Source: Opitutales bacterium
Lineage (GTDB): Bacteria > Verrucomicrobiota > Verrucomicrobiia > Opitutales > PNEW01
DNA: 64,000 bases
Direction: 5' to 3'
Assembly: GCA_965197745.1 (NCBI GenBank)
Contig: CBDANS010000006.1
Coordinates: 1,248,001 to 1,312,000, forward strand
Positions 2,872-31,882 of the stretch are shown in pieces. The notes under the pieces are model-generated. The model saw only the letters and a list, made by a program, of their open reading frames with translations. It did no database searches and had not been told where the DNA came from. Each line of letters begins with the position of its first letter. Position 1 is the stretch's first letter. Position numbers and translations under genes: made by a program.

Positions 2872-2986
2872 TTTTTAATCGTAGACGAGGTATCGCGCTG
2901 CCAAATATATTGAGCTACACTATGGATTTAGACCGAAGATTCGGGGATCTTTTTTCTTTCCCACCTTGTCATGTCCATTCAGAAGA

Positions 2987-3484: not shown

Positions 3485-3937
3485 TTTAAATACGACAATT
3501 ATTTAAGTTCAGGTTTATCGCTGCCGGCAGTTATGAGCATTGATGAGGTGCTGACTCAAAAGGCTTTCCGGTTAAACCTATCAATATCAATTATACTTAT
3601 CACAGCCAATACGAAATCTACTGAGATTTCACATAAGCCAATAAGCTTTTAATGTGAGAAGTATGTCGGGATCTTAAGATTAATAATCCCCGCCAGTACA
3701 ATTTTCTGAGGAGGATTGAGCATTTTTTGAAAGGTATCGTAAAGGGTGCATAAACTCAAATTTCCTTAAATTTTTGCATAAATAATTGACAGAGCTCTTT
3801 AGGCACGATTAAAGGAAGCCAGTACTCATTTCTCCCAAGCTATTCTTAATTTAACGGTCAGATTTATTATTTAAAAATTGAATTTCGGTTTCGGGAAGTG
3901 TGCTAATTGAAACGAGAAGATAAAAGTAAGACTGATT

Positions 3938-4744: not shown

Positions 4745-4800
4745 AGACGAATTATTGGTAAGATTATCAAGTAACTTACACCCATTAAATAAAATTAGCT

Positions 4801-6603
4801 ATGGCAGACACGACCGCTACTGAAGTAAAAGACCCTGAAGTAAGCCACGGCGAACATCACGAAGAGCTTCCCTTCTGGCGAAAATACATTTTTGCCACGG
4901 ACCATAAGGTGATAGGCTTACAATATGGTATCACCGCTGGATTCTTTCTCTTTTTTGGATTCGGATTGATGATGTTTATGCGCTGGAGTATGGCCTATCC
5001 GGAGCAGCCGGTACCGATATTTGGTTTCCTTTTTGGCGAGACGGGCATCATGTCACCGGACCAATACAATACCTTTGGTGCTATGCATGGAACGATAATG
5101 GTCTTTTTAGGAGTCGTTCCACTCGCAGTGGGAGCTTTCGGTAATTTTGTCCTCCCCCTGCAAATAGGGGCGGTCGATATGGCCTTCCCAAAAATTAATG
5201 CGGCCAGCTACTGGTGCCTTTTTCTCGGTGGCGTGGTTATGCTCGCTAGTTTTTTTCTACCCGAAGGAGCCGCCAAGTCAGGGTGGACTTCCTATACCCC
5301 GCTGGCCGATATCGATGTTGGGCTCGGTCAGACCTTTTGGCTGATCGGCATGATCTTTTTGATTACGTCTTCGCTTCTTGGTGCTATCAACTTTGTCACC
5401 ACCACGATTCAATTACGCGCCCCTGGCATGAGCTATATGCGATTGCCCTTTTTTGTATGGGCGCAGCTGGTTACCGCTTTTCTCCTTATTCTTGCTTTCC
5501 CACCGCTTGAAGCCGCTGGCATCCTGCAGTTAATGGATCGCGTGGCCGGAACCAGTTTCTTCCTCCCAACGGGTTTAGTCGTCAGTGGAGAGGTCGCAGA
5601 CATCAGCGGGGGAGGTAACGCCGTCTTGTGGCAGCACTTGTTCTGGTTTTTAGCTCACCCCGAGGTCTATGTGCTTATACTACCGGCTTTGGGCATTGTC
5701 ACAGAAATTATAGCTAATAACTCCCGCAAACCCATTTTTGGTTATAATCTCATGGTCTATTCTTTGATTTTCCTCGGGTTTATGTCATTTTCCGTGTGGG
5801 CGCACCATATGTTCATGACTGGAATGGGGACCACCTTGAATGCTTTCTTCCAGACGACAACGATGATCATATCGATCCCCTCGGTGGTTATCCTTTCCTG
5901 CCTCTTTATTTCCCTTTGGGGAGGATCTATTCGTTTCAATACGCCCATGCTCTTCGCCCTCGGATTTTTACCCATGTTTGGTATCGGTGGATTGACGGGC
6001 CTGCCCCTCGGCTTAAGTGCATCGGATATTCATCTCCATGACACCTATTATGTAATCGGGCATTTTCACTATGTAGTAGCGCCCGGGACACTTTTCGCTC
6101 TCTTTGCGGGCATCTACTTCTGGTTTCCCAAGATTACAGGACGCATCATGAACGAAGCCCTTGGTAAACTGCATTTCTTTGGATCCCTTATTTTCATAAA
6201 TATCATTTTCTTCCCTATGCTTATACAGGGACTGGCGGGCGTAAATCGTCGATTATATGACGGCGGGCAGGCCTATGCGGACCCCACGGCAATTATGGAA
6301 CCGGGTTTTTATTCCCATGTGGCCAATGTGCTTTATTTGAATAAATGGATGTCCATGGCTGCCTGGGCGTTGGGTTTGGTTCAACTTATATTCATTTTCA
6401 ATCTCATTTGGAGTATTAAGAAAGGCAAAAAAGTTGATCGCAATCCCTGGGGGGGAACAACCCTCGAATGGGCCGCTCCATCACCTCCCGGTCACGGTAA
6501 TTTTGAAACCCCGGTTGAAGTCTATAGTGGTCCTTATGAGTACAGTGTGCCTGGCGCATCAAAAGATTTTAGCCCGCAATTTGAAAAAGGTTCTAGCACC
6601 TGA
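4801..6603 (+). CDS. ctaD: Heme-copper oxidase subunit I, A-family-like
   Basis: TDHKVIG, MHGTIMVF, GAVDMAFP, WFLAHPEVY, VWAHHMF, HDTYYVIGHFHY, RR pair. Confidence 0.97.
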   Translation: MADTTATEVKDPEVSHGEHHEELPFWRKYIFATDHKVIGLQYGITAGFFLFFGFGLMMFMRWSMAYPEQPVPIFGFLFGETGIMSPDQYNTFGAMHGTIMVFLGVVPLAVGAFGNFVLPLQIGAVDMAFPKINAASYWCLFLGGVVMLASFFLPEGAAKSGWTSYTPLADIDVGLGQTFWLIGMIFLITSSLLGAINFVTTTIQLRAPGMSYMRLPFFVWAQLVTAFLLILAFPPLEAAGILQLMDRVAGTSFFLPTGLVVSGEVADISGGGNAVLWQHLFWFLAHPEVYVLILPALGIVTEIIANNSRKPIFGYNLMVYSLIFLGFMSFSVWAHHMFMTGMGTTLNAFFQTTTMIISIPSVVILSCLFISLWGGSIRFNTPMLFALGFLPMFGIGGLTGLPLGLSASDIHLHDTYYVIGHFHYVVAPGTLFALFAGIYFWFPKITGRIMNEALGKLHFFGSLIFINIIFFPMLIQGLAGVNRRLYDGGQAYADPTAIMEPGFYSHVANVLYLNKWMSMAAWALGLVQLIFIFNLIWSIKKGKKVDRNPWGGTTLEWAAPSPPGHGNFETPVEVYSGPYEYSVPGASKDFSPQFEKGSST

Positions 6604-6621
6604 AATACAGGAGATAATCGG

Positions 6622-7221
6622 ATGTCTACAGTTGAAATTCCTTATATTAGTACCCCCAGACCGGACACCGGATTGGTTAACGCCAAGCTGGGGATCTGGT
6701 TGTTTCTGGCTTCTGAGGTAATGCTTTTCGGGGGACTGTTTTCTACCTATGTCATCCTGCGTGTCGGCGCAGAGACCTGGCCGGAAGGGGCCTCTATTCT
6801 CAATGTACCCCTCGCGACCCTGAATACAATAGTGCTTATCACTTCCAGTATTACAATGGTCATGGCTTGGGCTTCATTAGTGAGAAAAAATTTTAATAAG
6901 TTCCGGCTCTATAATTATGCGACATTGGCCTGCGGCCTGATCTTTCTCATCGTAAAATATTTTGAATACAGTGCAAAAATTCATCATGGCCTTTTCCCTT
7001 CGGAAAGCACCTTTCTTGCCATCTATTTTACCCTTACCGGGTTACATGGATTGCACGTTATTGGAGGTATGCTGACCCTGGCATACCTGCACTGGCCGGG
7101 ATCGAAGATGTGGAAAACAGATCCAGTGCGCTTTACCGGCAGGGTAGAATGCGCCGGACTTTTCTGGCACCTGGTGGACCTCGTCTGGATCTTCCTGTTC
7201 CCCACCCTTTATCTCATGTAA
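6622..7221 (+). CDS. ctaE: Heme-copper oxidase subunit III (short form)
   Basis: WLFLASEVMLFGGLF, TGLHGLHV, FWHLVDLVWIFLFP. Confidence 0.95.
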   Translation: MSTVEIPYISTPRPDTGLVNAKLGIWLFLASEVMLFGGLFSTYVILRVGAETWPEGASILNVPLATLNTIVLITSSITMVMAWASLVRKNFNKFRLYNYATLACGLIFLIVKYFEYSAKIHHGLFPSESTFLAIYFTLTGLHGLHVIGGMLTLAYLHWPGSKMWKTDPVRFTGRVECAGLFWHLVDLVWIFLFPTLYLM

Positions 7222-7233
7222 GAGGAAATAACT

Positions 7234-7551
7234 ATGGCAGAAAACTTAGAAGAACTTGATCAACATGTGCGGGCCTGCTTCGCCATTTTTGTGGCCCTGT
7301 TATGCCTGACCGTAATGACCGTAGCAGTATCATATTTAAACTTACCGGTACCCGCTACGATCAGCCTGGCCTTGTGCATTGCTTTAATCAAAGGATCTAT
7401 GGTCGTCTCCTATTTCATGCACTTAATCTCTGAAAAAAAAGTTATATTCTGGTCCCTCACGCTGACTGCTATTTTCTTTATATTTCTCATGATCCTTCCC
7501 GTGATAACGGACCTGGATATCATCTCTTATACGGTTACCGTCAGCCATTAA
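7234..7551 (+). CDS. ctaF: Oxidase subunit IV family protein (3 TM)
   Basis: LLCLTVMTV, IALIKGSMVVSYFMHL (K..V..FMHL motif). Confidence 0.85.
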   Translation: MAENLEELDQHVRACFAIFVALLCLTVMTVAVSYLNLPVPATISLALCIALIKGSMVVSYFMHLISEKKVIFWSLTLTAIFFIFLMILPVITDLDIISYTVTVSH

Positions 7552-7734
7552 ATGTCCTTAAAAATATTTCATATTTTTTTTATTTCCATTTCATTAATTC
7601 TTTGTCTTGGTTTCGGCTGGTGGTCGTTCCAGCAATCCGGAGCCTATATTTTTGCGGGCATTGGGTCTTTTGCAGCAGGTATCGCTTTATTTTTCTACGG
7701 CAATTATTTTCTGAATAAAATGCAGAATCTATAA
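7552..7734 (+). CDS. Small 2-TM membrane protein in the oxidase operon
   Basis: ATG directly follows the previous stop (TAAATG); 60 aa, two hydrophobic segments, conserved-looking MSLKIFH start. Confidence 0.7.
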   Translation: MSLKIFHIFFISISLILCLGFGWWSFQQSGAYIFAGIGSFAAGIALFFYGNYFLNKMQNL

Positions 7735-7736
7735 CC

Positions 7737-7976
7737 ATGGGCAGTATCATTAGAGATTATTATTTTCGGTTAATAATAGCTGCTTTAGTATTCGTTACGG
7801 CACAGCCACTCATGGCTTGCAGCAGTTGCTTCAGTAAGGTAACCGGGAGCATGGCAGACAGCATTAATATGGGTATCATTTCATTGTATATGACTGTCCT
7901 GGTCCTCCTTGGCGGATTTGCCTGTTTTTTTATTAACCTTTGGAAGCGCGCTAAAAAATTCTCGAGAGATAATTAA
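7737..7976 (+). CDS. Small exported/membrane protein with CxxC
   Basis: Signal-like N-terminus, ACSSCF, then one TM helix and a basic tail; 2 nt after the previous stop. Confidence 0.7.
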   Translation: MGSIIRDYYFRLIIAALVFVTAQPLMACSSCFSKVTGSMADSINMGIISLYMTVLVLLGGFACFFINLWKRAKKFSRDN

Positions 7977-8013
7977 TTTTTTTTAAAACCCCACTATTTA
8001 TGAAAGGTCGATA

Positions 8014-8805
8014 ATGGAACAACCGATGAAAGAATTCTTTGGGATGCCATGGCTACCCATTGATGTTTCAGAGCATGGAGCTGCGCTCGATGATCTAAAC
8101 TGGTGGTTACACCTCTTAGCGATTATCCTTTTTGTGGGATGGACAGGCTATTTTATTTATGTCCTCTTCCGGTTTAAAAAGTCACGTAATCCTCAAGCAG
8201 ATTACGAGGGGACAAAATCTCATTTGGGAACGTATATTGAAGTCGCTGTAATCGTTGCGGAAATTGTTCTTCTAATCGGTTTTTCTATCCCCCTTTGGGC
8301 ACAATGGGCCGATGATTTCCCCGAGGAATCAGAATCAGTGGTCCTTCGCATAGTGGCTGAGCAGTTTGCCTGGAATTTTCACTATCCGGGATCAGACGGG
8401 GTCTTCGGCAATACTGCACCTCAACTGATCGATGTGCAGACTAATCCCGTGGGACTTGATATGGAAGATCCCAATGCGGCCGATGATGTAATAGCCAAAC
8501 GGCTCTATCTTCCCGTAGACAAGCCGATTATTACGCATCTAACCTCCAAGGACGTCATACACAGCTTTGGGATTCCCGCTATGCGGGTAAAACAGGATAT
8601 CATTCCAGGCATAACCATTCCCGTGACTTTCAAAGTCCTGGAGACGGGAAAATATCTTATTGCCTGCAGCCAGTTATGTGGTAACGGTCACTACAGCATG
8701 CGCGGCTTTATCGAAGTCCTGAGCCAGGATAATTATACTGACTGGCTGAATAGGGAGGTAGAGAAAGCTAAAAAACAGGCGGAGGCTGGTGATGATTTAT
8801 GGTAA
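8014..8805 (+). CDS. ctaC: Cytochrome c oxidase subunit II (CuA)
   Basis: Two TM helices, AEQFAWNFHYP, SKDVIHSF, KQDIIPG, CSQLCGNGHYSM. Confidence 0.95.
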   Translation: MEQPMKEFFGMPWLPIDVSEHGAALDDLNWWLHLLAIILFVGWTGYFIYVLFRFKKSRNPQADYEGTKSHLGTYIEVAVIVAEIVLLIGFSIPLWAQWADDFPEESESVVLRIVAEQFAWNFHYPGSDGVFGNTAPQLIDVQTNPVGLDMEDPNAADDVIAKRLYLPVDKPIITHLTSKDVIHSFGIPAMRVKQDIIPGITIPVTFKVLETGKYLIACSQLCGNGHYSMRGFIEVLSQDNYTDWLNREVEKAKKQAEAGDDLW

Positions 8806-8861
8806 TTCATTTCCTCTAATTTTTGATACTTTGAAATTTTCCTAATTAAAGGAACCGGATC

Positions 8862-10586
8862 CTGAGCGGCTATTGTAAAAGTTGTATAATTAAATTTGTC
8901 ATTGCCTCTTGGGCGTTTTTAGCGGGAGCGACAGCACTCCTGGCGCAAACACCGGAAGGAGGTTCGGACGTAGCTTACCGGGATTTTCCCCTGGTCGGTA
9001 GTCGCATCGCCATTTGGGCCATAGGGGAGCTGCATCTTATGTATGCGGCCTTCGTTTTGGCCGTTCCGATGTTCGCTCTCCTCATCGAGTTTATCGGTTA
9101 TAAAACCGGGGATAAGCGATACGATAAGCTGGCCCATGAATTTACCAGTTTATTGAGCGTTTCCTTTTCCTTTACCGCTACTCTCGGAGCGATCCTCACT
9201 TTCATGCTGATGATTCTCTACCCGAGATTCACGAGTTACCTGGTTTCCATTTTTGATAAGACATTCTGGCCTTATGGATTGCTCTTTTTTGCCGAAGCCG
9301 GATTTTTATACAGCTATTACTATGGGTGGGGCAAATTCTCGCCTCGGGTCCACCTTCTTTTGGGTGTAGGATTAAATATCGTTGGTACCGCGATTATGTT
9401 CATCGCTAATGCCTGGCTCGCTTTCATGACTTCTCCAAGTGGAATTGATGAAGCCGGCAATCTTGTCAGCACCTGGGACGCCGTGAACAATTATATTTGG
9501 ATGCCCATAAATATTCACCGCATGATTGCCAATGTCTGCTTCGGCGGAGCCATTGCCGCAGCCTATGCGGGTTTCAAATTTTTAGGCGCGAAAACAAAAG
9601 AGGAAAAAGCGCACTATGATTGGATGGGCTATGTCGGAAACTTTATCGCCATTTCCGCGTTGCTCCCCTTACCCTTCGCCGGTTACTGGCTGGGAAGTGA
9701 GATCTATGCTTTCCGCGCGCAAATGGGAATGGTTTTAATGGGAGGAGCCTTTTCCTGGTTATTTATCATTCAAGCGGTACTTATCGGGATGCTTTTTCTC
9801 GGGGCTAATTATTATCTGTGGCTGGGAATGGAGCGAATAGAGGGTGCCGAAAAGTATAACAAGTTTATAAAATACCTTCTCGCTACGATCACCGGCTGCT
9901 TCATTGTTTGGGCCACGCCGCATTCACTTGTCGCGACGGTTGAAGAAGCGCGTAAAATGGGGGGAGCCCATCACCCGATTCTTGGTATTTTAGGGGTGAT
10001 GTCGGCAAAAAATACCGCGGTTAATATCATGATTCTCACCACCTATATCAGCTTCCTTCTCTATCGCCGGGGAAACAAGGTGGCCACGGTTTCATGGGCG
10101 CCCCTTGGCCATACGGCCCAATTCCTCATTTTTGCGGTTACCATAATTTTTGTTATTATCATTGGGGTGGTGGGTTATTTTATCGAAGCCTCAGTGCGGA
10201 TTGGGCTTTCCGTTCCCCAGGTTCTGTCTGTTTTGTCCGCGATGATCTCAGTTACGATTATTGATATATTCCTCTTCCGAAATGCGCGCATCGTCGGTCA
10301 GATAAAATGGGGAGAGATCTCGGCAAGAGCGCAGTATATGCTGTTTTTCCTCGCCGTAACCTTTACCTGGCTGATGGGGCTGATGGGCTATGTTCGTTCA
10401 GGTCTCCGCCTGCACTGGCATGTTTACGAGGTGATGAAGGATACTTCCGTTGACGCCTTTACCCCGACACTGGGTTTCGCCAGCACCGTGGTTTCATGTA
10501 TCGTTATCATTTTCTTCACCTTTATCATGTTTAATTTCTGGCTAACCGGGCTTCTCCACAAGAAAGATTGGGAGCCTCGCACTTGA
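8862..10586 (+). CDS. Cytochrome bd-like oxidase subunit I (Nitrospira/Nitrospina-type CydA homolog); probable CTG start
   Basis: ELHLMYAAFVLAVP, FFAEAGFLYSYYYGW, ANAWLAFMTSP, NIHRMIAN, GAHHP, MGYVRSGLR.HW. Frame is open from 8850; AAAGGA at 8848-8853 precedes CTG 8862. The ORF-track ATG (9039) lies after the conserved His. Confidence 0.85.
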   Translation: MSGYCKSCIIKFVIASWAFLAGATALLAQTPEGGSDVAYRDFPLVGSRIAIWAIGELHLMYAAFVLAVPMFALLIEFIGYKTGDKRYDKLAHEFTSLLSVSFSFTATLGAILTFMLMILYPRFTSYLVSIFDKTFWPYGLLFFAEAGFLYSYYYGWGKFSPRVHLLLGVGLNIVGTAIMFIANAWLAFMTSPSGIDEAGNLVSTWDAVNNYIWMPINIHRMIANVCFGGAIAAAYAGFKFLGAKTKEEKAHYDWMGYVGNFIAISALLPLPFAGYWLGSEIYAFRAQMGMVLMGGAFSWLFIIQAVLIGMLFLGANYYLWLGMERIEGAEKYNKFIKYLLATITGCFIVWATPHSLVATVEEARKMGGAHHPILGILGVMSAKNTAVNIMILTTYISFLLYRRGNKVATVSWAPLGHTAQFLIFAVTIIFVIIIGVVGYFIEASVRIGLSVPQVLSVLSAMISVTIIDIFLFRNARIVGQIKWGEISARAQYMLFFLAVTFTWLMGLMGYVRSGLRLHWHVYEVMKDTSVDAFTPTLGFASTVVSCIVIIFFTFIMFNFWLTGLLHKKDWEPRT

Positions 10587-10594
10587 TCAACAGG

Positions 10595-11413
10595 ATGAAG
10601 AATATTATCAATATATTTGTCTTAACTATCTTAACCACCCTTTTTTACTGGTATGTGGGGCAGATGGTTCCGCAAAAGGAGACGCATCCACCCGAAAGCA
10701 CGGAAATTCGAGATGACATGAGCACTGAGGAGATGATTGTTGCCGGGGAAAAGATAGCTACGGGCAAGGGAACCTGTTTTCTATGTCATACGATGGGCGC
10801 TGAAGGAACGCGCGCCCCGGACCTGGCCGGTATAGGACAGCGAGCGGCTTCGCGTATAGAGGGTTATAGCGATGTTGATTATCTGGCTGAATCTCTTTTT
10901 GAACCGGCCTTATATGTCGTGGAGGGATTTAATCCTATCATGACGCCATCGAATAAAGCACCTATTAGCTTAACACCGCAGGAAACATTAGCGGTTATTG
11001 CTTATCTTCAAAGTTTAGGGGGCACTCCCTCGGTGACGATGAAGACGAAATTAAAGTACTCTGAAGATGCGACGGTGACTCCGGCACCAGCAACCGTATC
11101 AAGCAGCGATGCCAGTGCGGTTTCTTATGACAATCTCAGCGGGGAAGAGCTATTTAATAAGTATGCGTGTATGGCCTGCCACAGTTTGACGGATCCGATC
11201 CAACTGATTGGCCCAAGCCTCTATGATGTGGGAAATAGATTAAGCAGGGCGGAAATCTATGAATCCATTATCGATCCCGATGCCGTGGTCAACGAGGGTT
11301 ATGTTAAAGGAGTAATGGGAATTACCCTCGAAGGTGCCGGATTTGATAGTAATGTTACACCCCAGCAACTGAGAACGATGGTGGAATTTCTATCGGAGAA
11401 AAAGGGCAGTTAG
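10595..11413 (+). CDS. Membrane-anchored diheme c-type cytochrome
   Basis: N-terminal TM; CFLCH and CMACH; YLAESLFEP..YVVEGF..IM; ATG 10595 is 8 nt after the upstream stop. Confidence 0.9.
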   Translation: MKNIINIFVLTILTTLFYWYVGQMVPQKETHPPESTEIRDDMSTEEMIVAGEKIATGKGTCFLCHTMGAEGTRAPDLAGIGQRAASRIEGYSDVDYLAESLFEPALYVVEGFNPIMTPSNKAPISLTPQETLAVIAYLQSLGGTPSVTMKTKLKYSEDATVTPAPATVSSSDASAVSYDNLSGEELFNKYACMACHSLTDPIQLIGPSLYDVGNRLSRAEIYESIIDPDAVVNEGYVKGVMGITLEGAGFDSNVTPQQLRTMVEFLSEKKGS

Positions 11414-12247
11414 ATGAAATTTCTTATTATACCCCTGGTCTTATTTATTTTATTTGTCATTTATTTATTCAGCAGATCAAAAAAACTCGCCTTGTTTAAC
11501 GCCCTCTTTTGGGTAATTGCCTGGTGGATTGCTTTTTATGTGATTTTTAAAAACGCGATTTCACCTCCGCTTCCATCCTCCATCGTCCAGATGTTTATGG
11601 CGATTATTACGATTGCGCTTTTCTTTTATATCACCGCGGATACTCAGCGATTAAAGGAAACTATCCACCCGATTATTCAATTTCTCGTAAATCGAAAATT
11701 TACCCTGCCCCTGGGATTAGTAATTATCATCATTCCCCTGCTCGTGGCCGGAAAAGTTTATTTAGGTTCTCAGGTAGAAATTGTGGCCCCGGTATTTGGG
11801 AGGAGTATCCATCCCGCGCCGCCTACGGAAATTAATTTTCAGGGCAGACCATTATTACTCAATGAACTTGAAAATCCTTATCGTCATCTGGAGACAGAAA
11901 ATCCTGCTGCTTTCCAGGAACACGTTGAAACTGGCCGTAAAGTGTATTACAATAATTGTGTCTATTGCCATGGGGACACGCTCGACGGGAAAGGAAATTT
12001 CGCCCATGGATTCAATCCCATTCCTGCCAATTTTGCTGACGTCGGTACCATTGCACAATTGCAGGAATCCTATGTTTTCTGGCGTGTAGCTAAGGGAGCC
12101 CCCGATCTCCCCGACGAATCAGGACCCTGGAGTTCTGCCATGCCTGCGTGGGAAAAATTTCTTACTGAAGATGAAATTTGGGATGTCATCCTTTTTATTT
12201 ACGACTTTACCGGGCACAGGCCAAGGGCGCGAGTGGAGCATCATTAA
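11414..12247 (+). CDS. Multi-TM membrane monoheme c-type cytochrome
   Basis: About 4 N-terminal TM helices, RSIHPAPP, CVYCHG, PWSSAMPAWE. Confidence 0.9.
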   Translation: MKFLIIPLVLFILFVIYLFSRSKKLALFNALFWVIAWWIAFYVIFKNAISPPLPSSIVQMFMAIITIALFFYITADTQRLKETIHPIIQFLVNRKFTLPLGLVIIIIPLLVAGKVYLGSQVEIVAPVFGRSIHPAPPTEINFQGRPLLLNELENPYRHLETENPAAFQEHVETGRKVYYNNCVYCHGDTLDGKGNFAHGFNPIPANFADVGTIAQLQESYVFWRVAKGAPDLPDESGPWSSAMPAWEKFLTEDEIWDVILFIYDFTGHRPRARVEHH

Positions 12248-12253
12248 TCTTGA

Positions 12254-13873
12254 ATGGGTATAATGAAATCAGGCATGCAATTATCTAAGAATAGTAGACT
12301 CTTACAGCTGTCATTTGTCCTCACGGTTATAGGTTTTTTTACAGGTAGTATCCTCTACTCCGGCGAAGTAAACCTGGGGACGGAAACGGAGCGCGAAGAA
12401 GGTAAAAAATTGTATTTAAATTATTGCGCCCACTGCCATGGGGTTGATGGTGACGGTGAAGGGAGCGCGATGCGGTATTTTCATCCCAAACCGAGAGACT
12501 TTACCGGGGGGAAATTTAAACTGCGCAGCACCGAAAGCGGCGAACTCCCAACCGATAATGATATTATTCAGGTAATTCAAAAAGGGATGCCATACACCGG
12601 TATGCCTGCGTTCCCTGATTTTAATGAGGAAGAATACCAAAACCTCGCCTATTATCTTAAAACATTTAATGACGATTTCACCGACCCGGATTTTATCGTT
12701 GATCCGCTCAGCTTTCCTAAAGCGCCACCCTACAGTGAAGAATCGGCTTTGAAGGGAAAGGAGATTTATACTATCAATGAGTGCAATGGCTGCCATGGTG
12801 AGTCTGGGCGAGCCGATGGGATATCGGCCTCTACGCTGGAAGACGATTTCGGTGATATAAAATACCATATCCGCCCCGCTGATTTGACAAAAAAATGGAC
12901 ATTCCGACGAGGACCAACGCGCGAGGATATGTACCGTGCTTTTACTACCGGGTTGAATGGAACGCCCATGCCTTCTTATAAAGATTCTATAACCCCAGAA
13001 GACCGGTGGCATCTGGTGAATTATATTTACTCACTCTCCGATCGTGTTGAACCGAATTATTCTACAACCGTAATTGCCGAGTATACAGAAGAGAAGATAA
13101 ACCTTTCAAAAGGTAAATCACTATTTGAAAATAGCGAAGTAGCGTTTTTTCCTGTCGTCGGGCAAGTGATCGAACCCGGGCGTGAGTTTTTTCCGTCTGC
13201 CAATGCCATCGAAGTGAGGGTGATCTACAATCAGGATGATATTGCATTTATGCTTTCCTGGAATGACATGAAAGCTGAAGTTGAAGGGAGTAATGCTCCA
13301 GACATAGCGGTTGAGAAAAATCATCTCGATAAGCCGGAGACTCAGATGAAAACACGGGTCGTTGAGGACCGCGGAATAACGTATTCGGATGCGGTTGCAT
13401 TACAACTTCCCAGTGTCATGCCCGATGGGTTTAAAAAACCCTATTTTCTTTATGGCGACAACAAAAATACCGTAGATATTACCTTTCTTGATCTGGCCGA
13501 TGAAAATGAAGTAAAGCGTTACACCGGTTTTGGATATGATCGGCTTACCCTGGTAGAAAACAATGATGCATCTGCTGTCTCTAATTACGATAACGGTGAA
13601 TGGTCAGTTATTATCAAACGCAATCGGAATTTGGGTGCTGAAGAGGGTCTATCCTTTGTCGAAGAGACCTTTATACCGCTATCGTTTTATGTATGGGATG
13701 GCTTTAACAGTGAACGCGGCATTGATAGCAGCATTAGCTCGTGGTACAGCCTTTATTTAAAAGCCTCGGAAGAGGAATCTCCTATAATCCCCATGATTAG
13801 TTACGGTTTCCTTGCCCTCTTTATAGAATTAATCATAGTTTTTCTCATGAGGAGGAAATTTTCCACGGCTTGA
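12254..13873 (+). CDS. Diheme c-type cytochrome fused to an EbdC/DMSO-reductase-gamma-like domain, with C-terminal TM anchor
   Basis: CAHCHG..PKPRDF..MPAF; CNGCHG..GTPMPSY; then LSWND, SDAVALQLP, NGEWSVIIKR, FYVWDG..SER; hydrophobic C-terminus. Confidence 0.85.
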   Translation: MGIMKSGMQLSKNSRLLQLSFVLTVIGFFTGSILYSGEVNLGTETEREEGKKLYLNYCAHCHGVDGDGEGSAMRYFHPKPRDFTGGKFKLRSTESGELPTDNDIIQVIQKGMPYTGMPAFPDFNEEEYQNLAYYLKTFNDDFTDPDFIVDPLSFPKAPPYSEESALKGKEIYTINECNGCHGESGRADGISASTLEDDFGDIKYHIRPADLTKKWTFRRGPTREDMYRAFTTGLNGTPMPSYKDSITPEDRWHLVNYIYSLSDRVEPNYSTTVIAEYTEEKINLSKGKSLFENSEVAFFPVVGQVIEPGREFFPSANAIEVRVIYNQDDIAFMLSWNDMKAEVEGSNAPDIAVEKNHLDKPETQMKTRVVEDRGITYSDAVALQLPSVMPDGFKKPYFLYGDNKNTVDITFLDLADENEVKRYTGFGYDRLTLVENNDASAVSNYDNGEWSVIIKRNRNLGAEEGLSFVEETFIPLSFYVWDGFNSERGIDSSISSWYSLYLKASEEESPIIPMISYGFLALFIELIIVFLMRRKFSTA

Positions 13874-13894
13874 ATCGGCGGAAAATATACTGAA

Positions 13895-14668
13895 TTAATC
13901 CTGGATTGCCTGTCGGGCTGCTTTCGAGGCCTGCTCCGAAGCGCTCGTGAGAAACATCGAATCAGCACCCGAGGCCAGCATATTAAATCCGATTGAATGA
14001 CAATATTTTATAAGCTCTGGGGAGTGGGCGGGCATAACCGAGAATTTACCGTGTTTATTACTTGCTTGAGCTACTGCCTCCATATCTTTTCCTAACGTTT
14101 CTTTTGTGCGTGGAATATCCATGGAGACACCACGCCGTAAGAGGATGTCATCGGGACCAAGAAACAGGGCATCGATGCCATCAATCGCGGCGATGGATTC
14201 CGCATTTTCCACCGCCCCCGGTGTTTCGATCTGGGCAATGACGAGGGTGTCTTCATTCGCCGTTTGAGAAAACGAACGGCTTTTCCTGTCAATTATACGG
14301 CGTCCACCGAAAGATCGCTCTCCGAGGGGGGGAAACTTCGCGGCACTAACAATAGCTTTTGCCTCTTCTACGGTATTAACAAGGGGGACAATAATGCCGT
14401 CTGCGCCAGCATCGAGGACCATTCCAATAAATCCCGCTTCATGTGAGGGAACGCGTGCGATTGCCGGTAATCCCATGAGTTCACAGACTCTAATCAGATT
14501 CAATATCTCCTGGTAGGCGAGTTGCCCGTGTTGTCCATCGATCCACACCCAATCCCAATCATTGCCGATTCGCTCAAGGATGCCGGGTGCTGGATAACCA
14601 ATGGCAAAATCGAACTGCGTTTCTCCCGCTTTTATTTTTTCTACAAATTCTTTCATCATAGTTTCCAT
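13895..14668 (-). CDS. HpcH/HpaI aldolase family protein
   Basis: DWVWIDGQHG, LDAGADGIIVP, KFPPLGERS, QIET, LFLGPDD. Confidence 0.92.
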   Translation of the reverse strand: METMMKEFVEKIKAGETQFDFAIGYPAPGILERIGNDWDWVWIDGQHGQLAYQEILNLIRVCELMGLPAIARVPSHEAGFIGMVLDAGADGIIVPLVNTVEEAKAIVSAAKFPPLGERSFGGRRIIDRKSRSFSQTANEDTLVIAQIETPGAVENAESIAAIDGIDALFLGPDDILLRRGVSMDIPRTKETLGKDMEAVAQASNKHGKFSVMPAHSPELIKYCHSIGFNMLASGADSMFLTSASEQASKAARQAIQD

Positions 14669-14724
14669 CTATGTATAGCCATAATACTAAACGCAATCCC
14701 AATCATGATTCGGGCCCCATTAAT

Positions 14725-15618
14725 TCAGTTATCTGTTTTTGTGACCACGCAGTATTCAGTATAACTTTGGATTTTTTTTAATCCGAGTTTTTCGAGAAAG
14801 TAAAAATCAACTTCATGAGTGGAGAGTTTAGGAATATCTATCAATGGACTTATTGAGGTGGATACATATTTTATGAGGAGACCCAGTAACATCGGGCCCT
14901 TTTCTTTGCTTTTACACCCGAGTCCCAAAATAGTTACCGGTGATTGCTGACTGACATTAGCGGACTCGTCTTCAATGTAGAATAGATAGGCGGCAATTCC
15001 ATCCATGTCCGGTATGCCTAACCCTTTGATTTCTTTTTTTCGATTAATGAGCGTCTGCGTTCTTCGTTCCCATGCCAGCAGGGTTTCATCACTCTGATTA
15101 TTTTCCCCTGTTTGTGTCAGGTAACGATCTCCAGGATCTTCAACTTCAACCGGGATGATCAATTCAGGCGATACTGGCGGGCTCAATGAAGTAGAGGCGG
15201 TAAAGTCACAATAATTCCGGTGCGCTTTAAAATCCAGTTTCCCGAAAAATTTACCTAAGTCTTCTCGATTATCCGGGATAGCGACGGTCAACGCTGGTGG
15301 CCCCAGCACTGCCATTTTATCTTTGAGGGAAGTTACGAGTTGGGGCCCGTAATTATGACCCTGGTAATCTGGTTGGAGGCCCAATCTTAATATTAACGAA
15401 GAGACATTCCTTTTCGCCGTTATCAGGACGCCAACTGGAACATTATTTTCCAGGGCGAGCATGCATGAACTGGCCCAAAGATTGAGATGCTTCACTTCCC
15501 TTTTAAATCCCTCTAAAGTGAGGGGAGGGACATGGGGAAAATGAATGTCGTAACACCGGTTTACGGCTTCGACAAGTAATGGAATATCATCAGGACGACA
15601 AAACCTGAATGAGGGCAT
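14725..15618 (-). CDS. GNAT-fold acetyltransferase-like protein
   Basis: LGLQPDYQGHNYG resembles motif A (V.P.xR/QxxGxG); FFGKLDF and FLEKLGL suggest tandem GNAT halves. Confidence 0.65.
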   Translation of the reverse strand: MPSFRFCRPDDIPLLVEAVNRCYDIHFPHVPPLTLEGFKREVKHLNLWASSCMLALENNVPVGVLITAKRNVSSLILRLGLQPDYQGHNYGPQLVTSLKDKMAVLGPPALTVAIPDNREDLGKFFGKLDFKAHRNYCDFTASTSLSPPVSPELIIPVEVEDPGDRYLTQTGENNQSDETLLAWERRTQTLINRKKEIKGLGIPDMDGIAAYLFYIEDESANVSQQSPVTILGLGCKSKEKGPMLLGLLIKYVSTSISPLIDIPKLSTHEVDFYFLEKLGLKKIQSYTEYCVVTKTDN

Positions 15619-15624
15619 GCCTGA

Positions 15625-17673
15625 TCAAAGGTCGGAACGTTTACTTTCAAGTTCCGACATGACACTGACTTCATTAAGGTTTTCCTTGGGCGGTTGATCG
15701 TGAGGATAATCATTCACCTCTTCACTTCCATATTCCGGAGCGCCGCTCATTCTTGAATTACCGTTGCCGTTAGTCTGAGCGGTAATCATCTCTTCCATCA
15801 TTTTACGCCCAATTTCGATTCCCTTTTCGACAAGTCCAATATCTATGGAAAAAGTTTTCTCTTCTAATGCGATGCTTTCAATTCGCTCCTGTACTTTGTC
15901 ACGCATAAAGCCAGCGGGAACGCGCAATATGCGCTCCGAGGCTTCCGCGGTCCAATCATAAACCGATTTTAAAGGGGTCCCTTTTTTGTCCCTCGCGATT
16001 AACTTGATCCCATCGTTGAAATCATTCTCAACTGAAGACGCGGAGTTGCTGGATGATGCCGTAAGGTTATGTTCTTCCAGGCTGTCTTCATGTCCCAGCT
16101 CTTTAATTATTTCCTCTGCGAATTCTACGGTTACTGCGTTCAAACGTCGCATCCTGGCCGCTTTTTCAATATAAGCTTTGGCCCGTCTTTTCTGGTAGTT
16201 GTCCTTGATCGCTGGTAACAGCTTGCGCGCTTCTTTGGTCCAGGAGAGTTTTCTCCCGTCGTACGAGGTTTCTTCGTTCGATCCTCCCTCTGATTTTATA
16301 ATATCATCAATAATTTTCGGAGTAATCACCTCAAAGTTTGTTGATCCGCACACCGCACACTTAATCGGGTTTTCCTCTTTAGCCGTCATCCCACAACTTT
16401 TACAGATGGCGGTGTTCCCTTTGCGTGCCATATTAAAGGCCAGGGTTTCTGCGAGTTTATCAGTCGCTTTCGCTGCCTGTTTCGGCATGAAGCGATCCAT
16501 CGCTTCATCGATCAAAGAGTTGGTCACGACACTGTGACCCTTTTCCACGGCGAGCCGTAGGATCCCGGTGCGCGCGATACCTTTTACGAGAGGGGGAACT
16601 CGGGTCATACGTTCTTCGGCTTCCTGGGTCCATTGAATACTCTCTTCCGCTTTGCGGTCGAGTTCCGGGTAGACCAATCGTGAATTGAGGAGCACATCAC
16701 AGGGAGCTATGCGCAATAAGTTATCTGTGTTACTCCCCAAACCCGTGTCTTCGAGATCGCTATGGACCCCAATCCTACCGACGATCAGCAGCCAGGGAGG
16801 ATTTTTACGCGTGTAGTCCAATATTTTCTGAAAAGCTTTTCCGTCGAGAAGCACTTTTTCTGCTTCGAGGCCTTTTTCTTTCAACATCTTTTCCGCAACT
16901 TCAAGATGGGACTGATAGATTTGAGCCAGGCCCGTATCAATAATTTCTTCATGTAATTGGTTTTGTTCTTCAAACCGGAAAACTTTAGCCGCTTTATCAG
17001 TGAGGACATCAACGATCCCATTAAAGACCATATAATGGAGATAAGGGTCATATACACCGATGAGCGTAATTTTTTTATTAAATTCTTTCGCCAGTTCAAC
17101 CGCGGTCATGAGTCCACCAAATGACTGCGGACTGCCGTCCACCCCCACAAGAATCGTATCGCGCTCCGGCTCATCATCTACGGGGAGATGTTTTACCACC
17201 CAGATATCGCCTTTCCCGTGCCGGGTCACGCTCTGGCAAACTGCGCCAATCTGACTGTCTTTCGTTTTTCCAATACCCTTAATCCCCAGGACGGTAAGGT
17301 CGTATTCGGAAGCTTCCATATCTTTCAAAATCTGCTCATGGTGCTTCCCGTCCATCATCTTCTTCTCTAATTCCAGGCCCGCTTCTTCGCAGTGTTTGTC
17401 CATTTCAGTGAGATAACAATCGGAAATCAGCTTTAATCCCATGGTGATTAAGCTGTCGTGAATTTTCCGCTGCCTTTCCAATTCGGTCTCCTGGAGGTAT
17501 TCATCGGGCAGGGTGAACTCCATTTGCTTGAATCGATAATCATGCATTTTTGCGGCATAGACATGATTGCCCGTTAATCTGGAGTTATATTTTTTACCAA
17601 CCTCGACCGCGACACTAATTGCCTGGTTAGAATAGTCTGAGTTATCTACAGGGACGAAAATCGATTTAAACAT
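15625..17673 (-). CDS. Multidomain protein: USP-USP-PCP_red-rubredoxin-like-PCP_red-PCP_red
   Basis: IFVPVDNSDYS and ILVGVDGSPQS USP starts; G.SQIGAV and GLGSNT USP ends; three W(T)xEA helical motifs; CKSC-x12-CAVC. Confidence 0.85.
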   Translation of the reverse strand: MFKSIFVPVDNSDYSNQAISVAVEVGKKYNSRLTGNHVYAAKMHDYRFKQMEFTLPDEYLQETELERQRKIHDSLITMGLKLISDCYLTEMDKHCEEAGLELEKKMMDGKHHEQILKDMEASEYDLTVLGIKGIGKTKDSQIGAVCQSVTRHGKGDIWVVKHLPVDDEPERDTILVGVDGSPQSFGGLMTAVELAKEFNKKITLIGVYDPYLHYMVFNGIVDVLTDKAAKVFRFEEQNQLHEEIIDTGLAQIYQSHLEVAEKMLKEKGLEAEKVLLDGKAFQKILDYTRKNPPWLLIVGRIGVHSDLEDTGLGSNTDNLLRIAPCDVLLNSRLVYPELDRKAEESIQWTQEAEERMTRVPPLVKGIARTGILRLAVEKGHSVVTNSLIDEAMDRFMPKQAAKATDKLAETLAFNMARKGNTAICKSCGMTAKEENPIKCAVCGSTNFEVITPKIIDDIIKSEGGSNEETSYDGRKLSWTKEARKLLPAIKDNYQKRRAKAYIEKAARMRRLNAVTVEFAEEIIKELGHEDSLEEHNLTASSSNSASSVENDFNDGIKLIARDKKGTPLKSVYDWTAEASERILRVPAGFMRDKVQERIESIALEEKTFSIDIGLVEKGIEIGRKMMEEMITAQTNGNGNSRMSGAPEYGSEEVNDYPHDQPPKENLNEVSVMSELESKRSDL

Positions 17674-17803
17674 GTATTTTACCTGACGCTGCTATTGATT
17701 TTTAAGGTTTAGGAAACGAACTTTTCAGTCAATTTCACCATCTGAATTATTTACTTAGATGTCAATGAAATGAGAAACTAATCCATGATTTCTCAAACCA
17801 CTT

Positions 17804-19144
17804 TTAGCGTTTCCCAAAAACTTTTGGAGTCGGCATCTTACTGCGTATTTCAGTGAGCACTTCACCCGTCACTCTGTTTATATTATTTTTCAAGCAATAG
17901 CTTTCGACGGACTTTTTTACCATTCCGCGGACAAATGCGGGGATTTCTTTCATGCGTTCTTTTGCCTCGAATTCCCATTCAATTGATCCGGAATTATCCA
18001 GGTCGTGGGGGAGGCCATATTCCATTCCGGGACGGTTATTGATTGCCTCCTTTGAATACTTTCCCGGGGTGTAATCACAGAGCGGATCTTCGGCCATATA
18101 ATCTCCGGTGACCCCATAAGCGCGGGCGCGGCACCCGCCACAAACACCGTTAAATTCGCAGGTCCCACAACGGTCGCCAAGATTGTTTCTTTGACGGATT
18201 TTTAAAAATAAATCCGATTGGTTCCAGATCTCCTCCATCGTTTGATCCTCTAAATTGCCACCGAAATCGGGGAGATAAGGACAAGGGGTCATGTCTCCAT
18301 TGGGACGTATGCCCATGTACTGGGTTCCGGCCGGACAGCCACCCGCACCCCCGGTGAATGATTTTAAAAACCTGGAGTCAGGATCTTCCTCATAAAGGTG
18401 TTTTGCGTAATGAGGCGCGCACTTGGCATTGGTAATCATTTTCCCCTCATATTTTTTCTGGACTAGAGAAAGGGTCGTTAAGACCGCATTGTATTGATCG
18501 GGGCTGATATCAGAAACAAACTGTCCGCGCCCTGTAGGCACTAAAAAATAGAGGTTAAAAACTTTGGCCCCCATTTCTTCATAAGCGAAATCGGCTATAA
18601 CTTCAATCTTACCAAGATTATGTTTTCCCACCGTCGTTTGGACTATAAAAGAGAGACCTGTTTTATGTAATACCTTTGCCCCATTAACCGTGTTTTCCCA
18701 GGCGCCTTTTACCCCGCGAAACCGGTCGTGGAGTTCGGGGTCGAGAGCGTCAAGCGAGAGTGACAGTCCACGCAAACCGCTTTCTTTTAATATCCCGGCC
18801 AGGTTTTCTGTAATGAGAACACCATTGGTTCCACAAACTACCCAAAGTTCCTTTTCACTGCCATATTTAATGATTTCGAGGATATCTCTCCGCAGCAACG
18901 GCTCGCCTCCGGTGAGAATAGTTAATGCTTCAGGGGCAAAGTCAGCGATCTGATCAATGATCGTCTTACATTGTGCGGTGTTAAGTTCGCTGCGATCAGA
19001 AAATCCATCGGTGCTTAACCGGCGAACATCCTTTCCCCCCGCGTCGAGATAACAATGCTCACATTTTAAATTACACCGGTTTGTCAAATTCCACGATATA
19101 ACATATGGCCGCTGGAATTTATTGTTAGATGCTTCGTTTAACAT
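17804..19144 (-). CDS. Radical SAM/SPASM enzyme (AhbD/NirJ-like) with a C-terminal PCP_red domain
   Basis: WNLTNRCNLKCEHCY, TGGEPLLR, LVPTGRG, GGCPAG, TPCPY, CGTCEFNGVCGGCRARAY, EDPLC; C-terminal WEFEAKERMKEIPAFVRGMVKKSVE. Confidence 0.9.
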   Translation of the reverse strand: MLNEASNNKFQRPYVISWNLTNRCNLKCEHCYLDAGGKDVRRLSTDGFSDRSELNTAQCKTIIDQIADFAPEALTILTGGEPLLRRDILEIIKYGSEKELWVVCGTNGVLITENLAGILKESGLRGLSLSLDALDPELHDRFRGVKGAWENTVNGAKVLHKTGLSFIVQTTVGKHNLGKIEVIADFAYEEMGAKVFNLYFLVPTGRGQFVSDISPDQYNAVLTTLSLVQKKYEGKMITNAKCAPHYAKHLYEEDPDSRFLKSFTGGAGGCPAGTQYMGIRPNGDMTPCPYLPDFGGNLEDQTMEEIWNQSDLFLKIRQRNNLGDRCGTCEFNGVCGGCRARAYGVTGDYMAEDPLCDYTPGKYSKEAINNRPGMEYGLPHDLDNSGSIEWEFEAKERMKEIPAFVRGMVKKSVESYCLKNNINRVTGEVLTEIRSKMPTPKVFGKR

Positions 19145-19161
19145 TGTTTAACAATTAATCG

Positions 19162-19192
19162 ATGTGATGCAGGATACTGGATACATGATGCA
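19162..19192. repeat. Left arm of a 31-bp imperfect inverted repeat made of degenerate 7-mers (GATGCAG)
   Basis: ATGTGATGCAGGATACTGGATACATGATGCA; its first 14 bp are identical to the reverse complement of 19617-19647. Confidence 0.8.
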
Positions 19193-19203
19193 AGTATTAT
19201 GAA

Positions 19204-19590: not shown

Positions 19591-19616
19591 TGATTATTTT
19601 CATTCAATATTGAACA

Positions 19617-19647
19617 TGCATCCCGCATCCTGCATCCTGCATCACAT
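19617..19647. repeat. Right arm of the 31-bp imperfect inverted repeat (TGCATCC 7-mers)
   Basis: TGCATCCCGCATCCTGCATCCTGCATCACAT; overlaps the stop codon of the upstream gene. Confidence 0.8.
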
Positions 19648-20142
19648 TTCAAATTCTTCTTTCGCGCGATCGAGGCATTCTTCGTTGACTTGAGTGAAAC
19701 CATTTTCACGGGCGAATTTTTCTATGCCCTTTTTTGCCATGGGGCGGGCAAATTCAGGAATTTTCTGTAATCGGACCATCGCTTGTGCCGTCCAATTAAT
19801 TTCACTATTATCGTCATCATTACTTTCCACCGTGTCCATCATTGCGTCGCGTGCCATCTGGGAGAATGGACATTTAGAAGCGGGTTCAGATTTGACCTCG
19901 TTGATGTCGCCGCTTTCATCCAGCGTGATCCCCTGAGATTTGGACACCGTTTCTCCGCCGATTTCTACTCCCATCGAGGTGACCATCTGGGTTTCGAAAG
20001 CATTAGTGAGCATCGCGATTTCAATCAGGCACTCCGGACATTCGTAGCGAATAGAGAGGGAGCCATGATCATCCGGTTTTAAGGGTGCTTCGCTTTTTAC
20101 CAGTTTCATCTGGGTATTACAGGATGTGCATAAGAATTTCAT
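19642..20142 (-). CDS. Zn-ribbon-like (CxxC...CxxC) protein with a C-terminal PCP_red domain
   Basis: CTSC...CPEC; KCPFS in the linker; WTAQAMVRLQKIPEFARPMAKKGIEKFARENG. Confidence 0.85.
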   Translation of the reverse strand: MKFLCTSCNTQMKLVKSEAPLKPDDHGSLSIRYECPECLIEIAMLTNAFETQMVTSMGVEIGGETVSKSQGITLDESGDINEVKSEPASKCPFSQMARDAMMDTVESNDDDNSEINWTAQAMVRLQKIPEFARPMAKKGIEKFARENGFTQVNEECLDRAKEEFEM

Positions 20143-20144
20143 GG

Positions 20145-31868: not shown

Positions 31869-31882
31869 TGTATTAATTCCTT

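Follow-up and report, generated by a model that had tools for sequence, protein, structure and literature searches.

A bd-like module that fits the OR-N family, with likely heme-handling gene neighbours, in a genome assigned to Verrucomicrobiota

Introduction

Cytochrome bd-like modules of the kind treated here have so far been discussed almost only for nitrite and manganese oxidisers, where they have been tied to nitrite oxidoreductase (NXR) or proposed as terminal oxidases. Here we describe such a module, a CydA-like gene followed by three genes for c-type cytochromes (cytc1, cytc2 and cytc3), at positions 8862-13873 of a 64,000-nucleotide (nt) stretch of contig CBDANS010000006.1. This whole stretch is referred to as the window, and 51 window open reading frames (ORFs) were scanned for Pfam and NCBIfam families. 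The module is a Verrucomicrobiota member of an already known but biochemically uncharacterised family.

The closest described systems come from nitrite oxidisers. The text available from Lucker et al. (2013) describes a bd-like protein of Nitrospina with 14 helices, retained heme b ligands, three helices in place of the Q-loop and no quinol-binding residues, and suggests for it a role resembling alternative complex III (ACIII) or in reverse electron transport (PMC3578206). For Nitrospira moscoviensis, the accessible sections of Mundinger et al. (2019) report a highly transcribed bd-like_3 gene together with two membrane-bound cytochromes c and alt_NxrC_2, a protein of about 62 kDa that contains two heme motifs and a transmembrane (TM) helix, and state that Nitrospina and anammox bacteria have kept this cluster as well (PMC6606698). 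Murali, Gennis and Hemp (2021) define the OR-N family, which they find widely distributed in Bacteria; they give 14 helices for OR-N1 and OR-N2 and note that a further cydA-like gene is often missing from the vicinity of OR-N2 (preprint 10.1101/2021.01.16.426971). In the parts seen of that preprint and of PMC10839748, OR-N proteins are read as cytochrome-c-oxidising O2 reductases. An excerpt of Yu et al. (2022) describes a terminal-oxidase complex, 'TO_1', with a periplasmic cytochrome b (PMC9040806).

Results

Composition of the module

The window module shares its four-gene architecture with the N. moscoviensis bd-like_3 cluster, also known from Nitrospina gracilis and Kuenenia, a comparison made with the published description of the architecture and with loci from metagenome-assembled genomes (MAGs), not with the reference proteins. 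This agrees with the original prediction of a Nitrospira/Nitrospina-type, cytochrome-c-linked and non-quinol bd-like module, as do the MAG loci, which belong to the same family. ORFs, Pfam matches and motif counts also bear out the gene content given there, a CydA homologue without cydB followed by three membrane-anchored c-type cytochromes with 2, 1 and 2 CxxCH motifs. That description left out the non-canonical start of the first gene, the EB_dh domain of cytc3 and five conserved neighbours on the minus strand. The window also differs from the N. moscoviensis cluster in belonging to a separate clade from the Nitrospinota and Nitrospirota copies and in having no nxr gene among the 51 ORFs. 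The four genes are:

8862..10586, plus strand: CydA-like, OR-N-type membrane subunit; 574 aa with CTG 8862 taken as start; assigned by PF01654 and fold
10568..11413, plus strand: cytc1, N-terminally anchored diheme cytochrome c; 281 aa; PF00034, PF13442; CxxCH at residues 70 and 201
11414..12247, plus strand: cytc2, four predicted TM helices and a monoheme cytochrome c domain; 277 aa; PF13442, PF00034; CxxCH at residue 182
12254..13873, plus strand: cytc3, 'alt-NxrC'-type subunit; 539 aa; PF00034, PF13442, PF09459, TIGR03477

The CydA-like protein has no CxxCH motif, and cytc3 has its two at residues 58 and 177. One hydrophobic anchor is found in cytc1 (TM 13-34), four in cytc2 and one at either end of cytc3. 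In cytc3 the N-terminal segment is an anchor or a signal and the C-terminal one a TM helix, and the protein further contains two cytochrome c domains and one EB_dh/NxrC-like domain. The genes are spaced by -19 nt (or +8 if cytc1 starts at ATG 10595), 0 and 6 nt. A scan of 2000-21500 is uninformative about operon limits: it gave 32 promoter-like and 22 terminator-like sites, where 37.1 and 21.4, respectively, would be expected.

A search of species-representative genomes with two peptide patterns gave at least 589 stretches; a relative is encoded in 583 of these 589, and the best 80 relative-coding loci of the at least 583 were kept. By tblastn of the window proteins, the CydA-like gene is followed by a cytc1 homologue in 79, by a cytc2 homologue in 74 and by a cytc3 homologue in 72 of these 80 loci, and the order CydA-like, cytc1, cytc2, cytc3 was kept in all 60 loci with at least 6 kb downstream. 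Every one of the 73 recovered cytc2 ORFs has a single CxxCH, and the 73 recovered cytc1 ORFs have two (42 ORFs) or one (31 ORFs).

The CydA-like frame is open from 8850 to the stop ending at 10586 and contains no ATG, GTG or TTG between 8850 and 9039, where the first ATG stands. Since H58 (residues are counted from CTG 8862) and half of TM1 are encoded upstream of 9039, the start codon, as read from the sequence, must be non-canonical, with CTG 8862, ATA 8886 and ATT 8889 or 8901 as candidates; CTG 8862 has AAAGGA eight bases upstream. Distant homologues have a full N-terminal hydrophobic segment at the place encoded upstream of ATG 9039. At least one database cluster of 28 member sequences (P0006, 515 aa) begins at the internal Met, and so lacks the His19-equivalent ligand.

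The CydA-like subunit

Profile matches and structural modelling together place the first protein in the cytochrome bd superfamily, with a predicted CydA fold. It matches PF01654 (Cyt_bd_oxida_I) with E 6.5e-23 and 81.4 bits against a cut-off of 26.2 (residues 56-280 with positions 11-236 of the 418-position profile), and no NCBIfam model was found for it at E <= 0.01. A profile of ten family members, compared with the PDB by HMMER, matched CydA chains alone over residues 41-281, and hhalign aligned residues 45-184 with residues 8-151 of E. coli CydA (probability 89.8, E 1.8e-6). In a model built by AlphaFold2 on 75 aligned sequences (mean predicted local distance difference test score, pLDDT, 89.6; predicted template modelling score 0.89) the protein has 14 membrane-length helices, and in a Foldseek comparison of this model with the PDB each of the ten best matches is a CydA chain (E 9e-10 to 1.9e-6).

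These alignments support the claim that the equivalents of E. coli His19, Glu107 and His186 are kept. H58 corresponds to His19 and E145 to Glu107 by hhalign and by HMMER against PDB chains, and H219 to His186 in the HMMER alignment to bd-II; H58 is kept in at least 90% of the 75 aligned sequences. At the position of Glu99, hhalign places Y138. The further claim that Arg448 is kept and the GRQPW motif replaced held in part: R516 and 'RLHW' are present, and their equivalence to Arg448 and GRQPW appears only in a non-significant HMMER stretch (-0.4 and 0.7 bits), with no Glu at 445. The additional histidine pair noted in GAHHP is found at H370/H371, and H371 is kept in at least 90% of the 75 sequences; H164, H251, H354 and H518/H520 are also conserved.

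The quinol-binding half of CydA is unalignable here: the Pfam match ends at profile position 236 of 418, the PDB profile match at residue 279 and the hhalign alignment at residue 184. The model has helices where canonical CydA has its long loop (the Q-loop), and its broken helix 270-293 is probably periplasmic. From helix order and loop charges, we infer that GAHHP (H370/H371), TPHSL (H354) and HWH (H518/H520) lie on the periplasmic side, the side at which bd oxidases carry their hemes. The C-terminal helices were considered as a possible CydB and rejected, as no similarity to CydB was found in the protein (hhalign against E. coli CydB, probability 0.3). By tblastn, neither a second CydA-like gene nor a CydB was found in the 64-kb window, and E. 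coli CydA as query over the window did not find the CydA-like gene itself.

The protein thus shares with E. coli bd-I (CydABX; 6rko, 6rx4) the CydA fold (Foldseek E 4e-9 to 4e-8) and the His19, Glu107 and His186 equivalents, but the window lacks CydB, the Q-loop region and a Glu445 equivalent, has Tyr for Glu99 and five extra helices, and pairs the protein with cytochromes c where the donor of bd-I is quinol. Judged by published descriptions and not by subfamily hidden Markov models, the module fits the OR-N family in sequence, sharing with it the absence of a quinol site and of a CxxCH motif in the CydA-like subunit, the 14 helices, His19 and cytochromes c in the operon; as is often the case for OR-N2, there is no second cydA-like gene nearby. 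OR-C enzymes carry a heme c motif within the CydA-like subunit and have a paired OR-C1b subunit; the window protein contains no CxxCH, and no further CydA-like gene accompanies it. The line between OR-C and OR-N is blurred, however, by 15 of the 120 best homologues (including P0035, P0038 and P0046), in which a monoheme cytochrome c domain is fused N-terminally to the CydA-like protein.

The cytochrome subunits and their predicted contact

The third cytochrome carries an EB_dh, or DMSO-reductase-II gamma, domain (PF09459, E 1.1e-11; TIGR03477, E 1.1e-13). Its relative in a Nitrospinota/Nitrospirota MAG locus (L058) matches Kuenenia NxrC (7b04_C, E 8.8e-14) and EbdC (2ivf_C, E 3.2e-10), retains the Met ligand of heme b and also has Lys where the ligand Lys of NxrC aligns. 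In the window protein, Y400 and D491 stand at these two positions, a difference also from the N. moscoviensis-type cluster. Across 57 aligned sequences (the window and those 56 of the 69 recovered ORFs that are 495-640 aa long), the Met is present in 6 and replaced by Phe in most others, and the Lys column holds K in 29 and R in 17. None of the six Met-bearing sequences belongs to the clade of the window or to the Acidobacteriota-type clade, and five belong to the Pseudomonadota/Nitrospinota/Nitrospirota clade. Judging from these residues, the EB_dh domain of the window has been retained but probably binds no heme b.

Structure prediction of the CydA-like protein together with cytc2 supports binding between the two. 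The predicted complex has a median score of 0.73, with 0.00 for the best of three controls, the runs concur in at least 75% of contacts, and the pLDDT of the partner is at least 77; in benchmarking, 116 of 157 solved complexes and 2 of 215 mismatched pairs attained this mark, figures that apply here only roughly because the prediction used self-made alignments. The predicted interface comprises residues 306-374, 487 and 489 of the CydA-like protein and residues 49-77 and 192-212 of cytc2. The third cytc2 helix (49-77) packs on CydA-like helices 306-350, and residues 192-212, beside the heme motif CVYCH (182-186), meet the loop 351-374 that bears H354 and, within 362-374, H370/H371. We know of no solved complex of this kind.

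Distribution, phylogeny and host

The CydA-like sequence is not a chance observation, since 7679 of 8000 scored candidates in a protein collection match it at E <= 1e-5. The top 120 have 70-97% identity, and among them are sequences from Calditrichia, KSB1, Latescibacteria, Gemmatimonadaceae, Rhodothermia and Fibrobacteria at 70-77%; the closest match has 97% identity. In a library clustered at 50% identity, 1411 representatives reach E <= 0.001 and 213 reach E <= 1e-30. The 80 kept loci carry 12 phylum labels, most often Acidobacteriota (34), Rhodothermota (13) and Pseudomonadota (13), and come mostly from non-nitrifiers; no Verrucomicrobiota genome is among them, and the best identity there is 75%. 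The original prediction had treated the module as out of place in its lineage, which this distribution contradicts.

A quick IQ-TREE tree was built from 104 rows, namely the window, 79 of the 80 loci (L060, cut short by the end of its contig, was left out), 23 database proteins and E. coli CydA; a warning about long-branch joins applies among its distant rows. The window and five further sequences fall inside a clade of Rhodothermota, Fibrobacterota and Calditrichia/KSB1 (Shimodaira-Hasegawa-like approximate likelihood ratio test support 99), which is sister to an Acidobacteriota clade, and a clade of Pseudomonadota, Nitrospinota and Nitrospirota branches earlier. The nearest labelled relatives are sequences of these groups (Rhodothermota, Fibrobacterota and Calditrichia/KSB1) and not of nitrite oxidisers. 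The Nitrospinota/Nitrospirota MAG loci L054, L055 and L058 belong to the same family, with 52-55% identity and the same gene order. As had been anticipated, the protein does not cluster with canonical CydA, and E. coli CydA stands on a very long branch (9.56 changes per column).

A weak lead from these sequences is that paralogues typical of Nitrospirota may form a separate, more distant group (30-39% identity, with long-branch warnings). For one distant relative (P0166), the nearest Atlas clusters are most often from Pseudomonadota and Nitrospirota. In eight of the 80 loci (L029, L065, L066, L067, L069, L070, L076 and L079), a second CydA-like paralogue stands some 7 kb upstream (in L029 on the other strand) and shares 39-56% identity with the window protein over aligned segments. 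Five of these paralogues (L065, L069, L070, L076 and L079) have their own cytc3-like gene, suggesting tandem duplicated modules.

The host is, by its gene content, a member of Verrucomicrobiota with heterotroph-type genes. All seven organism-named matches among the 120 listed for the window RsmE come from Opitutus, Opitutaceae, Lacunisphaera or Verrucomicrobia (45-48% identity), and the window also codes for a sulfatase, a GH31 glycosidase, a NanM-solute symporter fusion, peptide ABC transporters and a PATR-repeat protein. The RsmE relatives and the absence of nxr-like genes from the 51 scanned ORFs are in line with the original placement in an apparently heterotrophic genome of the Planctomycetes-Verrucomicrobia-Chlamydiae superphylum and not in a nitrite oxidiser. 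In the material available to us, a targeted literature search for bd-like enzymes and Verrucomicrobiota gave only work on comammox Nitrospira.

A conserved neighbouring cassette

Five genes on the minus strand downstream of the module are, judged by gene neighbourhoods, conserved module partners across phyla and likely heme-handling:

14725..15618, minus strand: GNAT-like protein; weak PF00583
15625..17673, minus strand: Usp-Usp-PCP_red-zinc ribbon-PCP_red protein, 682 aa; PF00582, PF08369
17804..19144, minus strand: radical S-adenosylmethionine (SAM)/SPASM/PCP_red enzyme of the AhbD-NirJ2 type, 446 aa; TIGR04545 and TIGR04055, below cut-off
19642..20142, minus strand: small PCP_red protein, 166 aa; PF08369
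20145..21026, minus strand: Mrp/NUBPL-type P-loop ATPase (iron-sulfur cluster carrier type); PF10609; NF041136 MrpORP at 179.5 bits, below the 450-bit cut-off

Among the 53 loci with at least 9.5 kb downstream, the Usp-PCP_red gene is near the module in 44, the radical SAM gene in 30, the Mrp-type ATPase gene in 30, the small PCP_red gene in 29 and the GNAT-like gene in 24. All 13 loci of the Rhodothermota-type clade, to which the window belongs, have the Usp-PCP_red and radical SAM genes, and none has the GNAT-like gene. In the Acidobacteriota-type clade the counts are 27, 13 and 24 of 30, with the radical SAM gene often past the 10-kb flank, and in the proteobacterial/Nitrospinota clade the Usp-PCP_red and radical SAM genes are found in 3 of 8. 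Gene order varies among the clades, and the cassette is inverted in the window and in one other locus (L077); proximity to the module is thus conserved despite rearrangement. The interspersed genes for an HpcH aldolase (13895-14668) and a 23S-IVP protein (19204-19590) were each found in 0 of the 80 loci.

For the Usp-PCP_red protein, the nearest Atlas clusters have the same Usp and PCP_red architecture, and the largest of them (511 members) is most often from Nitrospirota. The radical SAM enzyme keeps the CxxxCxxC and SPASM cysteines, and its architecture (Radical_SAM, SPASM and PCP_red) recurs in all 120 listed homologues. Its top models are AhbD (TIGR04545, 303.4 bits) and NirJ2 (TIGR04055, 296 bits), both under cut-offs of 500 bits. 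Among the 25 models shown, named peptide maturases reach at most 132 bits, and two other non-tetrapyrrole models exceed this, TIGR04053 (function unstated) at 263 bits and a GeoRSP-system enzyme at 147 bits. AhbD and NirJ2 are, in the text available from PMC10991733, names of the oxygen-independent coproheme decarboxylase. The window enzyme resembles them in scoring best there and in its cysteines, but differs in remaining below their cut-offs, in its extra C-terminal PCP_red domain and in adjoining a bd-like gene instead of ahbABC; at best, going by these scores, it would work like the AhbD family. Its AlphaFold2 model (pLDDT 81.8) matched generic SPASM enzymes in the PDB (PqqE, SuiB, SkfB and anSME), with no AhbD or NirJ structure among the Foldseek matches, so that the fold does not separate a tetrapyrrole from a peptide substrate.

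An adjacent aa3-type oxidase

A complete aa3-type heme-copper oxidase is encoded directly upstream, at 4801..8805 on the plus strand (PF00115, PF00510, PF03626, PF00116; TIGR02891, TIGR02866, TIGR02229), and serves here as context:

4801-6603, plus strand: coxA
6622-7221, plus strand: coxC
7234-7551, plus strand: coxD
between coxD and coxB, plus strand: two small membrane ORFs
8014-8805, plus strand: coxB

Its coxB has a COX2 domain without a cytochrome c domain and ends 56 nt before the CydA-like gene. The bd-like enzyme would not, with this neighbour, be the sole oxidase. Within 10 kb of the module, coxA is found in 14 and coxB in 21 of the 80 loci, and the cox genes are thus not part of the conserved module.

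Discussion

We propose that the products of the four genes assemble into a single membrane complex, which belongs to the cytochrome bd superfamily and there to the OR-N or 'bd-like' type. Its most likely function is that of a cytochrome-c-fed, bd-type reductase of O2, a reading to which we assign a probability of about 0.5. Cytochrome c as the partner is supported by the gene order kept in 60 of 60 loci, by the CxxCH domain fused N-terminally in 15 of the 120 best homologues and by the predicted contact with cytc2. Periplasmic electrons would enter through up to five c-type hemes on the three anchored cytochromes, and the monoheme domain of cytc2 could dock on the CydA-like subunit at its periplasmic loop with the conserved HH pair. 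Electrons might then pass by way of a heme at H219 (the b558 position) to a heme at H58 (the His19 position), where the oxidant, most likely O2, would be reduced with protons delivered along the retained E145/Y138 pathway. The extra helices of the 14-helix protein, together with the four helices of cytc2, could replace the quinol-binding half and CydB, and the AhbD-like radical SAM enzyme, the PCP_red proteins and the Mrp-type ATPase may supply or tailor the hemes.

Several observations weigh against this proposal. The Glu99 position is occupied by Y138, the weak 'RLHW' alignment offers no equivalent of Glu445, and an equivalent of Met393 was not identified, which makes a three-heme site conjectural. 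The complex between the CydA-like subunit and cytc2 is a prediction and not a measurement, and the heme b ligands are absent from the EB_dh domain of the window, so that the route of electrons differs from the Nitrospira-type model. With a complete aa3 oxidase directly upstream, a bd-like O2 reductase would be the second one, and the adjoining oxygen-independent heme enzyme may point to anoxic use, which suits a substrate other than O2 equally well. In the passages available from PMC10839748 and PMC12342949, the OR-N proteins are still called putative, with no experimental confirmation of their activity, and no assay of any member turned up in the literature consulted; these later papers agree with the earlier statement that bd-like enzymes lack biochemical characterisation.

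The main rival, to which we would give perhaps one chance in five, is an electron exchange between cytochrome c and the quinone pool, in which the complex would act either like ACIII or in reverse electron transport and would feed the adjacent aa3 oxidase instead of reducing O2 itself. Such a role was proposed for the Nitrospina and Nitrospira clusters in the sections seen of PMC3578206 and PMC6606698. It would suit a module that begins 56 nt after a coxB without a cytochrome c domain, the cox genes near the module in other loci (coxA 14 and coxB 21 of 80) and the annotation of one homologue (P0061) as a fusion of COX4_pro and CydA. However, adjacency to cox genes is a minority pattern, there is no recognisable quinol site in a protein that leaves the C-terminal half of the Pfam model unmatched, and the best-conserved part is the one with the His19 and Glu107 equivalents, which belong to the O2-reducing half. 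The 51 scanned ORFs contain no bc1 or ACIII genes, which speaks for this rival, but this negative covers the window alone and these genes may exist elsewhere in the genome. Less probable is a reading in which the module is a cytochrome-c-fed reductase of NO, H2O2 or other reactive species and serves detoxification or anaerobic respiration. No result obtained here constrains the substrate, and canonical bd oxidases act in the detoxification of O2 and NO, an option that the available part of PMC10839748 leaves open for OR-N. The reading is also compatible with the replacement of the residues equivalent to Glu99 and Glu445, and with the Usp-domain proteins and the oxygen-independent radical SAM enzyme next to the module, neighbours that would fit low-oxygen or stress conditions. 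Nothing positive speaks for any particular substrate of this kind, however, and in solved bd oxidases the conserved half is the half that reduces O2.

Two further explanations are highly improbable. A membrane anchor and electron outlet for a periplasmic NXR, as suggested for Nitrospira, Nitrospina and anammox bacteria, would account for the four-gene architecture shared with the N. moscoviensis bd-like_3/alt_NxrC_2 cluster (PMC6606698) and for the match of the EB_dh domain of relatives to Kuenenia NxrC (7b04_C, E 8.8e-14). For the window it is close to refuted: no nxr-type gene was found among its 51 ORFs or beside the module in the Nitrospinota locus L054, the family occurs mostly in non-nitrifier phyla, and the EB_dh domain of the window lacks both heme b ligands. 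Slimmer still is the chance of an ordinary quinol-oxidising cytochrome bd with its cydB elsewhere in the genome, in spite of the many homologues named 'cytochrome ubiquinol oxidase subunit I' in databases. It is already contradicted by a CydA match confined to the N-terminal half, by the failure of tblastn with E. coli CydA to find the gene, by the E. coli CydA branch of 9.56 changes per column, by the lack of any NCBIfam model at E 0.01 and by the cytochromes c that are the adjacent partners in 60 of 60 loci.

The 65-75% identity of the window protein to those of Rhodothermota, Acidobacteriota, Fibrobacterota and Myxococcota loci suggests a general respiratory device under strong constraint and not an accessory of nitrification. 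The window adds Verrucomicrobiota to the range of the module, and the question of its function is opened to ordinary heterotrophs, such as Rhodocaloribacter litoris, which we take to be a cultured species and which has a homologue at 73% identity.

Of the leads from this analysis, the association with the heme-handling cassette has the strongest claim to further attention. Within targeted literature searching, a link between bd-like enzymes and a radical SAM/AhbD/NirJ heme cassette was not found described. Speculatively, the AhbD-like-PCP_red enzyme, the two PCP_red proteins and the Mrp-type ATPase might form a dedicated tetrapyrrole-tailoring system that makes or inserts a modified heme without oxygen, although we consider it doubtful that they do. 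If true, this would be a new cofactor-maturation pathway for a respiratory enzyme of hundreds of species, and would bear on the replacement of heme d. The link gives a concrete hypothesis on the hemes carried, and heterologous expression of the module may need the cassette.

Other features of the window

Upstream of coxA, a 268-aa lipoprotein-like ORF (3938-4744) has a CarboxypepD_reg domain and a weak cupredoxin match; it is found in 14 of the 80 loci, in several of them beside coxA (for example L006, L032 and L040). Further upstream lie genes for an azurin-like cupredoxin (2359-2871) and a cytochrome c (2966-3484), and near the oxidase genes a CusF-SCO1/SenC fusion (21814-22689, minus strand) is a likely copper chaperone. 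A DUF1223 gene at 1236-2091 is present as two overlapping ORFs (profile positions 1-82 and 122-201), probably through a frameshift or as a pseudogene.

Two intact paralogues on the minus strand (25872-29156 and 33952-37236), each of 1094 aa, combine a family-5 solute-binding domain with an ABC permease in an unusual fusion. A third copy of this fusion (29242-33847, minus strand) is apparently split by an IS1595-family transposase: ORF 31883-33847 holds the N-terminal part of SBP_bac_5 together with Zn_ribbon_IS1595 and DDE_Tnp_IS1595, and the remainder is in ORF 29242-31509. A 1458-aa protein with eight PATR repeats (39012-43388, minus strand) is encoded in the most GC-rich stretch of the window, with a GC fraction of 0.547 at 40001-42000 against about 0.46 elsewhere.

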